Source of the DNA: a virus
IMG/VR virus record: IMGVR_UViG_3300026382_000175
Span: 1-64,000 of that record
Direction: 5' to 3' (one strand)
Length of the DNA stretch: 64,000 nt
The notes below the pieces were generated by a model. It did not search any database. It saw only the letters and a list, made by a program, of their open reading frames with translations, and had not been told where the DNA came from. Position 1 is the stretch's first letter; each line of letters begins with the position of its first letter. A program made the position numbers and the translations under genes. Below, one piece after another: positions 29,755 to 32,449 of the stretch.

Positions 29755-31620
29755 TCAATCAAAATAGCTACCCCAAAACAGTTGAGTTAGAGTTTGGTTT
29801 TGTTGAGAGGTATTACTTACTTCTGCTTTATGAATCCTTTGGAAAGCTAACTGTTTGATTAAATCTTTATTAGTTACTAAATTCCAATAAACTCCTACTA
29901 CTGCATCAGCACCATCTTTACTACCTTTAGTTCCATCAGGGAACTCTTGAGGGTGATCTATTTTCTTACCTATATCCTCTACATGTAATAACTCTTTAAT
30001 CAGTAAGTCGTGTTTAGGTATCCAAACTCTTTCCTCATATATAGCGTCTCTGAAGGAGAGGTAAGGGTCTTTAGTTCTATCTACTGATAAGAGAGCTGTT
30101 TTATAACCCATCTGGGTTAACTGTTGCCTCATATCCTCAGACTGAAACCCATCAATAGTTACCATTGCTATTGGGTAACCTAATCTAGAAAGGTCTACTA
30201 TGAATTGTCTTATCTTGTAAAATGGAATTCTCTCCCCTGGTAGAGGTTCTAAATAAGCTACGAAATCTATAACTACTTCTGGTTCAGAAAAAGAGTGTTT
30301 TTCTAAAGTTAGTGGGTCAACTCTTTCTATTGTTTTGTAGCCTTTTATGTAACCTGAAGCTATACCTGTCCTATCTCCTGTTATGGAAAGGTCTATATGA
30401 ATAACTCTAGGGCACTCTTTAAAGAGTGGGTTCTTTAGGTAGTTTATGTTGAAGTAGTTAATTAAGACATCTGATTTGTCGTTAAAGGATAATCTAATTA
30501 TCTGTTGGTTAACAGGGTTAGTAACTGAAGCTTGTTTTATGAGTATGTTTTTAGTTTTGAATATCCTATGGGTTGAACCTACTGAATAACCAGCTAAGTC
30601 TCTTATGGCATTGTGTAAGTCTAACTCAAATTTATCCTTTAGCTCTATTGGAACTTCTATTACCTTAGTTTCATCTATGTATTGCAGTTGGGACTCATCT
30701 TCTATTATGAATGGATCAGTAGTTTCATCTCCTATGAAAACCTTAAAGGTTTCACCTGAATAAATACCTAGATGTTTCTTAACTTCCCATATAGGGTATT
30801 GGAAGATTATTACTCCTTGCTTACCTCTTACCTTTTCTGCATGCTGGGAAACGAAATCAGTAGGAGATTTCTCAGAAGACACTAAGCAAAGATGTCCTGG
30901 AAGTTTGCCACCAGCTTGAGCAAACCTAGATTCCATTCTTCTAAGGAGTGCATTGTAAGACTCTTGAGCTTGGTTAGATATTACATCAAAGTTAGCTTCA
31001 TCAAGTATTCCTCCAAATACAGCCATACCAAGAGTGTGGGTAAACCTAGAACCTGCTACTATACCTATGTTATTAACAAATCTGATTTCAGATGTTTTCC
31101 TATTCTCAGCATCTAAATGTTCTTGGAAGAACTCTGAGTTAGCTATTAGGTTCTTAAATGGTTCATATAAAACCTGATCAGCCAATCCTAGTGTAGCGTT
31201 GAAGAGAGCTATTACTATCCTATCAGTAGGAATTAAGTTAAACTTTTTATGAGGATTTTCCAATAGGAGAAGTTTATAAAGATCATAAAGTGTTATAACC
31301 CTTGCTATTGAACTCTTGCCAACCCCTATCGCACCTCGCAAGATGCACTCATAATAAGGAGAGTAGAATGGGTTAGGAAAGATTGTTTTTAGAGCTTCTT
31401 TCCATAATGGGTATATCTTACCTCCTAAAGAAAGGCCTAAATACTTAGGATGTTCTATAAAGGTTATTATGTCTACTGGAACTTCTTTATAGCCCTCTAA
31501 TTCAGCATATAGTTGGAATAAAGATTGAGGGTCATTTTGGAACTTCTCTATTAGCTTCTTTAGTATAGACCTCTCTTTAGGAGGTAAGGTTTTTAGTTTA
31601 TTGATTAGTTGGTTTAGCAT
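29755..31620 (-). CDS. terL: Terminase large subunit
   Basis: Walker A GAIGVGKS, Walker B ILDE, nuclease HIDLS...D, 'DGFQS', 'KIDHP...SKDGADA'. Confidence 0.92.
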   Translation of the reverse strand: MLNQLINKLKTLPPKERSILKKLIEKFQNDPQSLFQLYAELEGYKEVPVDIITFIEHPKYLGLSLGGKIYPLWKEALKTIFPNPFYSPYYECILRGAIGVGKSSIARVITLYDLYKLLLLENPHKKFNLIPTDRIVIALFNATLGLADQVLYEPFKNLIANSEFFQEHLDAENRKTSEIRFVNNIGIVAGSRFTHTLGMAVFGGILDEANFDVISNQAQESYNALLRRMESRFAQAGGKLPGHLCLVSSEKSPTDFVSQHAEKVRGKQGVIIFQYPIWEVKKHLGIYSGETFKVFIGDETTDPFIIEDESQLQYIDETKVIEVPIELKDKFELDLHNAIRDLAGYSVGSTHRIFKTKNILIKQASVTNPVNQQIIRLSFNDKSDVLINYFNINYLKNPLFKECPRVIHIDLSITGDRTGIASGYIKGYKTIERVDPLTLEKHSFSEPEVVIDFVAYLEPLPGERIPFYKIRQFIVDLSRLGYPIAMVTIDGFQSEDMRQQLTQMGYKTALLSVDRTKDPYLSFRDAIYEERVWIPKHDLLIKELLHVEDIGKKIDHPQEFPDGTKGSKDGADAVVGVYWNLVTNKDLIKQLAFQRIHKAEVSNTSQQNQTLTQLFWGSYFD

Positions 31621-31650
31621 TATTGAACTCTTTTAGAGTGTTATGGATTT

Positions 31651-31726
31651 GCAAGGTAGGAGAAGGGAGGACTGGGACTCCCTTTACCTGAGTGGCCAAC
31701 TCAGGCTCTCCTACCCTGCCCCAGTC
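31651..31726 (-). ncRNA. Structured element: three-way junction plus 7-bp pseudoknot
   Basis: Helices 31651-63/31707-19, 31664-69/31678-83 and 31687-93/31699-705; loop GACTGGG is complementary to 31720-26. Confidence 0.65.
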
Positions 31727-31769
31727 TGATATATGGGTTGTGAGGAATAATGTTTTGAGGTTGTATTAG

Positions 31770-32249
31770 CTATACTTCTAGATGTTCTACTACTGAACTT
31801 AGTATTTCCTTTAGGGTATTTCTGGTTTCTTGATTTATCTCTAGTTGCTCTAGTATAGAAGAGTCTTCTTCAGTTTCTACTACTCTTAACTCTACTGATT
31901 GAGATAACTTAGAAAGTTCTTTTAGGATTGGTACTAAGGACTTAAGGTTATTGAATACTGAGTTATAAGCTTGAACTAATCCATTATAGAACTCTACCTG
32001 TTCTATGAAGTTAGAGAAGTTAGCGTTAGAAAGTAATTCGTCTTCTAGGGTTTCAAGTTTCTCTCCTAGTTTTATCAGACGAGACATGTACTTTTTTATC
32101 ATTAACCTTGTAAAAGAAGCTACTTCTAACTTTAGGGAATCTAAGTCTGGGTCTAGTTTGAAATCCTTGGAATTACCTTCTAGGTAGTCTCTTAGAGAGG
32201 TTAGTTGTTTATCTAGTTCTGATTGAACCTTTATGTTAGGCTTTTTCAT
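31770..32249 (-). CDS. Putative terminase small subunit
   Basis: Helical 159-aa protein directly upstream of terL; position only. Confidence 0.45.
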   Translation of the reverse strand: MKKPNIKVQSELDKQLTSLRDYLEGNSKDFKLDPDLDSLKLEVASFTRLMIKKYMSRLIKLGEKLETLEDELLSNANFSNFIEQVEFYNGLVQAYNSVFNNLKSLVPILKELSKLSQSVELRVVETEEDSSILEQLEINQETRNTLKEILSSVVEHLEV

Positions 32250-32269
32250 TAGCTACCTCTTTAAGGTTA

Positions 32270-32400
32270 AAGAAAGGGTAGAGGGTTATTTCCTCTACCC
32301 TTTAACTCTCCTGGTCAGGGAGGAGAGATGAGGGGGAAGGAGGTCAGAATGGAATACAAAGTAAAGAGAATAGTTCAAGAAGGGAGAGTATTATTTAGCC
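32270..32400 (-). ncRNA. Putative trans-acting antisense sRNA with two mRNA targets
   Basis: 32311-32332 equals 61624-61645 (22/22). 32349-32379 vs 42378-42408 is 26/31 with all differences G:U-compatible. Ends in a terminator; 5' end uncertain. Confidence 0.7.
32273..32303 (-). terminator. Intrinsic terminator hairpin (3' end of the putative sRNA)
   Basis: 12-bp perfect stem AAAGGGTAGAGG/CCTCTACCCTTT followed by CTTT. Confidence 0.75.
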
Positions 32401-32449
32401 TTAGCTAACCTAGTTAAGGTAAGTTAACTCTATTATAATAACTTGATAA

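Follow-up and report, generated by a model that had tools for sequence, protein, structure and literature searches.

The locus analysed here raises a simple question: what is a short, GC-rich stretch in which nearly every base can pair doing directly before the large terminase gene of an uncultured hydrothermal-vent phage? The stretch lies in the IMG/VR record IMGVR_UViG_3300026382_000175 (80,914 bp, linear, estimated to be 91% complete), of which the first 64,000 nucleotides were analysed (hereafter the window). It is present in eight DNA runs from five studies, labelled as hydrothermal-vent metagenomes, and no RNA run is among the eight. The minus strand carries every gene between about 40 kb and 13.7 kb, and the element is placed one gene into a minus-strand late operon on a scale of roughly 18 kb, within a 149-nt gap (31621-31769) bordered by a 159-aa ORF upstream and by the large terminase gene terL downstream.

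The terL gene (621 aa; 29755-31620, minus strand) was recognised by a match to phrog_9 (E 9.7e-07), which was its only family match, sequence searches of Pfam, NCBIfam and PDB having produced none. The 159-aa ORF (31770-32249, minus strand) has an all-helical product (AF2 pLDDT 65) and occupies the position of terS. It had no match in PHROGs, Pfam or NCBIfam, nor in Foldseek at E <= 0.001, and neither these searches nor the AF2 model supported its identification as terS. An earlier note on this DNA had placed the element between the terminase genes, which is supported for terL only. The 159-aa ORF has a homologue with 78% identity (P0004, 162 aa) on a 12,456-bp contig in JGI/ENA data; this homologue is absent from IMG/VR.

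Folding of the minus strand of the element (31726-31651, 76 nt) with RNAfold gave the same three-way junction as both the MFE and the centroid structure. A 101-nt fragment folded at -47.2 kcal/mol (z = -4.9, with none of 200 dinucleotide shuffles as stable), the junction was retained in a 216-nt context, and the predicted fold was stable in silico up to 85 C. With the pseudoknot included, 66 of the 76 nucleotides are paired and 10 are unpaired. The GC content of the element (60.5%) exceeds that of the window (34.6%), and the spacers on its two sides are AU-rich (GC of 0.33 upstream and 0.27 downstream). When the gaps of at least 50 nt between minus-strand ORFs at 13.7-40 kb were ranked, the gap 31621-31769 was the most structured of the 11 (z = -7.1, mononucleotide shuffles).

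In the order of the minus strand, the element begins with the pseudoknot 5' strand GACUGGG (31720-31726), which directly adjoins the closing helix P1 and is complementary to loop nucleotides 31676-31670. P1 comprises 13 nt on each side (5' strand, 31707-31719; 3' strand, 31651-31663), and its only non-Watson-Crick pair is a G:U on the minus strand. A single G separates the 5' strand of P1 from the first hairpin, HP1 (31687-31705), a 7-bp stem with the loop UGGCC and the palindrome UGGCCA. The junction strand UAA (31684-31686), polymorphic in length and present as UUAA in most relatives, leads to the second hairpin, HP2 (31664-31683), whose 6-bp stem is capped by an 8-nt loop, UCCCAGUC, the partner of the 5' flank. 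P1, HP1 and HP2 were all read from the MFE fold. P1 is followed by AAAUCCAUAAC without a U-run, and the terminator scan gave no site at the element, so an intrinsic terminator was rejected. The element ends 30 nt before the ATG of terL (at 31620). This conserved linker (31621-31650) contains the terL ribosome-binding region, with AAGAG 7 nt before the ATG, and in the 101-nt MFE fold the ribosome-binding site is unpaired and lies outside the structure. On the other side, an AU-rich spacer (31727-31769) that evolves at an approximately neutral rate and contains many indels follows the stop codon of the 159-aa ORF.

The description in the earlier note was thus accurate: the GC-rich island in an AT-rich genome, the near-complete pairing, the 13-bp closing helix with its two hairpins (to the exact sequence), the sole mismatch that is a G:U on the minus strand, and the 30-nt distance to an ATG with a weak SD were all recovered.

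Several other structures were noticed around the element and in the same operon. In the 216-nt MFE fold, CAUUAUU in the upstream spacer (about 31741-31747) pairs with AAUAAUG at the terL start (31618-31624) and encloses the element; this pairing is AU-rich, the spacer part involved is deleted in the related genome L004 (see below), and it may be due to chance. The gap 32250-32449 ranked second (z = -5.7) and contains a 12-bp hairpin directly before the SD of the 159-aa ORF; the matching site of L004 has a different hairpin and a U-run. Its sense strand is complementary to the P1 5' strand at 15 of 16 positions (12/500 shuffles were as good), which may also be chance, and derivation of the element by duplication of this gap was rejected, the local alignments being unconvincing (37/500 and 12/500 shuffles). 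A strong terminator-like hairpin (19229-19206, minus strand; 10-bp stem, 7 GC pairs, U-run) is located inside the late operon, directly after a 460-aa ORF, in a 59-nt gap with z = -4.7. As for short words, GGCC occurs 15 times in the window, vs 57 expected from base composition (4-fold depletion, which suggests restriction avoidance), and the HP1 stem words CCTGAG and CTCAGG occur 18 and 17 times, vs 6 expected.

IMG/VR searches based on terL identified four close and 76 distant relatives. The element is present in L001 (G001, 85.0 kb; terL 98% identical), in which a G to A change turns the G:U pair into A:U and the junction has one extra U, and in L004 (G002, 88.8 kb, with terminal repeats; terL 93%), in which the gap measures 135 nt. 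It is absent from L002 (G003, 58.8 kb, 66% complete; terL 85%), where the stop codon of a 157-aa homologue lies 3 nt from the GTG start of terL and a GAGG sequence is found within the upstream ORF. The fourth contig, L003 (terL 83%), is cut inside terL and is therefore uninformative. A feature specific to L004 (1271-4557) is that its terL is broken right after the Walker-A motif GVGK by an intein-like insert: the ORF for the N-terminal part ends in a sequence starting with C, a free-standing 324-aa ORF follows, and terL is taken up again, after ...SIHHN|T, in the ORF behind it. Such an arrangement resembles the 'fractured genes' of split inteins.

The three copies of the element were used to build a covariance model (R1), which recovered one sense-strand copy each in G000, G001 and G002, and no further copy across 82 sources (557,845 bases, including 80 terL loci). 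Applied to four whole records, it found one copy per genome in three of them and none in G003. The element was also present in contigs of four further vent-metagenome runs. No match was found by blastn among 50,697 phage records, and terL-alignment searches of metagenomes and of genome contigs yielded no relative. Pattern searches gave (i) one stretch, a known relative, for the HP1 19-mer in viral contigs, (ii) 11 stretches for a 16-mer pattern (two known relatives, nine chance matches to which R1 did not respond), (iii) no match in genome contigs for a pattern with 21 specified bases, (iv) 17 stretches in metagenome contigs for the loop/junction pattern (the source contigs of G001 and G002, and 15 without an R1 match) and (v) five stretches in viral contigs for the HP2/P1 pattern (two known, three judged to be chance and lacking an R1 match); inspection by eye of two matches to this last pattern, L121 and L123, revealed no complementary structure. 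At the loci of distant relatives (terL identity 27-41%), 52 of 80 could be parsed after matches beginning beyond query residue 50 were dropped. Most of these 52 have a gap of less than 60 nt before terL, and none of the 13 gaps of at least 65 nt folded like the element. Since the searches matched only these contigs, the element is confined to one small sub-lineage. It looks like a gain in that sub-lineage, the alternative being a loss in L002, and it is not essential to such phages because a relative with an 85% identical terL does without it.

Within the sub-lineage the element changes more slowly than its surroundings. At 4-fold synonymous sites of the two flanking genes the window diverges from L001 by 0.13-0.14 and from L004 by 0.21-0.31, vs 1 substitution in 77 positions of the element in the first comparison (binomial p = 1.8e-4) and 6 in 75 in the second (p = 2e-3 to 2e-4). 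The 43-nt upstream spacer shows 5 substitutions and 1 indel relative to L001 (~0.12) and can hardly be aligned with L004. Judged against the synonymous sites, the element and the 30-nt linker are therefore under purifying selection, whereas the spacer is not.

Most of the changes that did occur keep the pairing. All 13 pairs of P1 are maintained in the three genomes, and the pair 31716:31654 is G:U in the window, A:U in L001 and G:C in L004. The top pair of HP2 changes from G:C to U:G in L004, and L004 and contigs of the runs X3, X4, X5 and X6 have C.A in place of the loop-closing U:A of HP1; the HP1 loop is invariant across all variants seen. Eight differences separate the window from L004: one turns the G:U of P1 into G:C, two convert G:C to U:G in HP2, two more (A to G in the flank and a lost loop U) re-form a 6-bp pseudoknot, and the remainder open the loop-closing pair of HP1, open the outermost pseudoknot pair and lengthen the junction.

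Contigs of four of the eight DNA runs (X3, X4, X5 and X6) were compared as well. Among the differences listed for them, the same polymorphisms recur in new combinations: position 31654, which faces the G of the wobble pair, is U or C, position 31699, at the closure of the HP1 loop, is U or C, the extra junction U (after 31685) is present or absent (UUAA in L001, L004, X4 and X5), one X5 contig carries the full L004-type set, and the spacer at 31740-31771 has many deletions. One X6 contig of depth 3.8 has one G fewer at the pseudoknot/P1 border, possibly an error. None of the run contigs joins across the element. In the three sequences two pairs have changed on both sides, and 98% of the cells are paired, vs 37-55% for slid partners; this covariation is suggestive and, with three sequences, not statistically significant (104 of 500 column shuffles reached the observed value).

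The pseudoknot proposed in the earlier note agrees with these comparisons. All 7 nt of the 5' flank find a complement in the HP2 loop, where they leave one of the eight nucleotides free (duplex energy -11.3 kcal/mol); on the minus strand, complements of this length to a 7-mer of the loop occur at a frequency of 6e-5 per position. Such a complement abutting the helix is thus unlikely to be due to chance, even if some tens of candidate positions are allowed for. The core CUGGG/CCCAG is invariant in the three genomes, and L004, as read from its sequence, has the flank AGCUGGG and the loop CCCAGC, i.e. a re-paired pseudoknot of 6 bp.

The lengths of the junction strands (1, 3-4 and 0 nt) suggest how the parts might be arranged in space. 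The rule for three-way junctions of family C is attributed to Lescoute and Westhof (reference 37 of PMC5760640). In a family-C arrangement HP1 would stack on P1 and HP2 would fold back along P1. The 6 bp of HP2 and the 7 bp of the pseudoknot would then match the 13 bp of P1, the flank strand would finish, at its 3' end, beside the first nucleotide of P1, and a pseudoknot with a zero-length linker could close; with HP2 stacked on P1 instead, it would be impossible. We infer this geometry, including the match of 6 + 7 to 13, from helix and strand lengths rather than from a computed 3D model; in L004 the corresponding sum is 12, vs 13 in the window.

Both strands of the element fold about equally well (sense/antisense values of -41.7/-39.6, -42.2/-43.8 and -41.0/-40.9 kcal/mol). 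The strand was therefore assigned from the orientation of the genes and from two wobble pairs, the G:U of the window and the U:G of L004, which would be A.C mismatches on the plus strand; with modest confidence, the minus strand can be regarded as the functional one. A coding role was rejected: a 33-codon UUG ORF that runs through the element, like three small ORFs of the plus strand, either loses its frame through indels in relatives or lies in the indel-rich spacer, and the small ORFs that cross the element are broken by the junction indel and the loop deletion, so the element is not coding. The scan for promoters and terminators found no site at the element, and a promoter in the spacer was rejected, no box being conserved in the relatives. 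Of the 15 nt that directly precede the flank, 5 differ between the window and L004, and the remaining spacer is rich in indels, which makes a conserved promoter in the gap unlikely. The element is therefore probably internal to a polycistronic late transcript.

Comparison with known RNA families yielded no assignment. Rfam 15 was searched with 1401 nt (12 matches) and, with laxer filters, with 126 nt (8 matches), up to E = 10, and all of the matches were far below the gathering score; the best, to traJ-II RNA, reached 22.6 bits vs 40. Up to E = 10 there was no ribozyme, riboswitch, pRNA, xrRNA or epsC model among them, and none of the hammerhead, HDV-like, twister, twister-sister, pistol or hatchet models matched. 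ARAGORN detected no tRNA or tmRNA gene in the whole window, so that the earlier note, which could match the element to no hammerhead, HDV or tRNA pattern, agrees with both programs. A hammerhead was also rejected on structural grounds, junction strands of 1, 3-4 and 0 nt being too short for its core. That this is a new structured element, as the note supposed, is borne out in so far as it is not in Rfam, is under purifying selection, has changed in ways that preserve pairing and is located in the 5' untranslated gap of terL. Of the roles that the note offered, a cis-regulator of terminase expression, a nuclease-resistant RNA and a packaging-associated RNA, the last gained no support in a phi29-type form.

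The architecture is unusually tidy. The element is best regarded as a cis-acting structured RNA of a phage late-operon leader or intercistronic region, whose role, as judged from the sequence, is probably the control of processing, stability or translation of the terL mRNA. The specific reading that we favour, and hold tentatively, is that of a lineage-specific, sense-strand, cis-acting RNA in the polycistronic late (packaging/virion) mRNA, which would set the fate of the terL message and uncouple its translation. In L002, the sister lineage, a distance of 3 nt between the two genes would permit translational coupling. The module (P1 of 13 bp, HP1 of 6-7 bp and HP2 of 6 bp, locked by a 6-7-bp pseudoknot) would have arrived together with an AU-rich spacer and its own weak ribosome-binding site. 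It might act in cis on the message as a very stable barrier, or as a processing structure defining a protected end, which could belong to the terL message (5' end) or to the upstream cistron (3' end); translation of terL would be uncoupled from the upstream ORF and its dose thereby set. The evidence does not tell an effect on stability or processing apart from protein binding or antitermination.

Protein binding is the alternative that survives best, although we consider it rather unlikely. Autogenous translational control is known for gene 32 and regA of T4, and a phage protein (the 159-aa protein or the terminase) might similarly bind the element, perhaps via the UGGCC loop, and tune terL translation as an operator. 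This would fit the position of the element 30 nt before a weak ribosome-binding site and the invariance of the HP1 loop, which is maintained although GGCC is depleted in the window; candidate cis-regulatory structures upstream of gp32 and large-terminase genes are, moreover, described in the available text of PMC10690425. However, the upstream ORF matched no known RNA-binding family or fold, and the ribosome-binding site is left unpaired outside the structure in the 101-nt MFE fold.

A cis-acting antitermination RNA, modifying RNA polymerase for read-through of the late operon, is improbable. Such RNAs include put of HK022 and EAR (epsC) of Bacillus, the latter likewise intercistronic. The element lies one gene into a long minus-strand operon that contains the terminator-like hairpin 19229-19206, and another terminator-like hairpin is found just upstream of the 159-aa ORF. 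Against this, Rfam gave no match, epsC included, the length of the strand between HP1 and HP2 (J23) is variable, and a relative with an 85% identical terL lacks the element altogether.

We give equally little credence to the idea, drawn by analogy, that the element is a phage counterpart of the viral xrRNAs, i.e. a protein-free junction that would mechanically stop an RNase J-type 5'-3' exoribonuclease or another processive enzyme upstream of terL. If true, the late polycistronic RNA would give rise to a stable terL message that is translated on its own, and the element would be the first of this type from a phage.

It is distinctly improbable that the element acts as DNA, whether as a pac or cos site, an inverted repeat bound by protein or a signal for single-strand initiation, or that it is the functionless remnant of a mobile insertion with 13-bp terminal inverted repeats. 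Its 13-bp inverted repeats surround a 50-bp core, the two strands fold with similar stability, homing elements abound in these phages, and the presence/absence polymorphism relative to L002 resembles an insertion. Nested hairpins and a flank-loop complement would, however, make no sense in duplex DNA, the two wobble pairs fit one strand only, contig ends do not coincide with the element, and the terminal repeats of G002 are located elsewhere. As for an insertion, no target-site duplication is visible, each genome carries one copy, and the pattern searches of genome contigs (21 specified bases) and metagenome contigs found none elsewhere beyond the two source contigs; a neutral remnant would not be expected to show substitution so far below the synonymous rate.

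Phages do carry small ribozymes and riboswitches, and a phage-operon junction as compact as this one (~76 nt, pseudoknotted), matching no known family, could in principle represent a new class of either. We regard this as very improbable: only 10 of the 76 nucleotides are unpaired, the main junction strand varies between UAA and UUAA among near-identical variants, unlike a ligand pocket or catalytic core, the free ribosome-binding site and the missing terminator leave no expression platform, and no hammerhead, HDV, twister, pistol or hatchet match was obtained. Finally, a trans-acting or multimerising packaging RNA, loosely like the rings of phi29 pRNA, is the most improbable of the readings. 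The element adjoins terL, the 6-nt palindrome UGGCCA in the HP1 loop could form kissing dimers (duplex energy -9.1 kcal/mol), and the flank could equally well bind the HP2 loop in a second copy of the RNA. However, such a palindrome in a 7-nt loop is expected by chance in ~3% of cases, no pRNA match or sign of an own transcription unit (promoter or terminator) was found, the two loops are not mutually complementary, and the terL of an ordinary terminase family, the RusA gene and the size of 80-89 kb are unlike those of phi29-type phages.

The favoured reading, a cis-acting RNA that sets the fate of the terL mRNA, would bear on how late operons are controlled. The regulation of late operons in phages is generally ascribed to promoters, terminators and translational coupling. 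In one sub-lineage of these vent phages, a selected, pseudoknot-locked RNA module stands in place of a 3-nt junction, permissive for coupling, before the gene of the packaging ATPase, which offers a natural with/without comparison for terminase dosage at the RNA level. With its 76 nt, almost fully paired and predicted to be stable to ~85 C, the element would be a convenient object for assays and possibly a portable stabiliser for the genetics of thermophiles, within the reach set by its narrow distribution and the absence of a cultured host.

Known systems resemble the element in part. The best-scoring Rfam family, traJ-II RNA (RF01760), shares with it a purine-rich closing helix, two hairpins and the nature of a cis-regulatory 5' UTR motif; the element is not a member, its score being well short of gathering and 20 and 13 model positions being deleted in the two hairpins. 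The pRNA of phi29, which serves DNA packaging, likewise folds into a three-way junction, and its loops are able to pair. It is, however, a separate transcript from near the genome end, and its two loops are mutually complementary, which leads to a ring, whereas UGGCC and UCCCAGUC are not complementary and the element has neither its own promoter and terminator nor an Rfam match. The late mRNA of T7 contains RNase III processing sites, one of them between genes 18 and 19 (small and large terminase), which set mRNA ends and relative stability. These sites and the element are alike as stable intercistronic structures in a late polycistronic mRNA next to terminase genes. The T7 sites, however, do not branch: each is a hairpin that has an internal loop and lacks a pseudoknot. 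Only the coaxial stack of P1 and HP1 (~20 bp) would be expected to resemble an RNase III substrate.

According to the available text of PMC5760640, class 1 xrRNAs of flaviviruses are family-C three-way junctions locked by pseudoknots that involve nucleotides just 5' of P1, and they form a purely mechanical, protein-free block that also stops bacterial RNase J1. The element has in common with them the three-way junction, which in our case is predicted and is kept in three genomes. The same text describes the xrRNA 5' end as pairing with the junction and the P3 loop as pairing with a downstream strand, so that a ring is formed around the 5' end. In the element the 5' flank itself pairs with the P3-equivalent loop (that of HP2), nothing is threaded, and there is no downstream partner. 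The closest described systems are the candidate structured RNAs (csRNAs) of the 2023 IMG/VR survey (PMC10690425), which, according to its available text, have a mean length of 67 nt, include 14 models upstream of large-terminase genes and others upstream of gp32, and were proposed to be cis-regulatory from their context only. No pseudoknotted three-way junction is described in that text, and the element might be one of the 14 terminase-linked models. Both are short conserved structures in intergenic regions of uncultured phages, placed immediately upstream of the large terminase gene.
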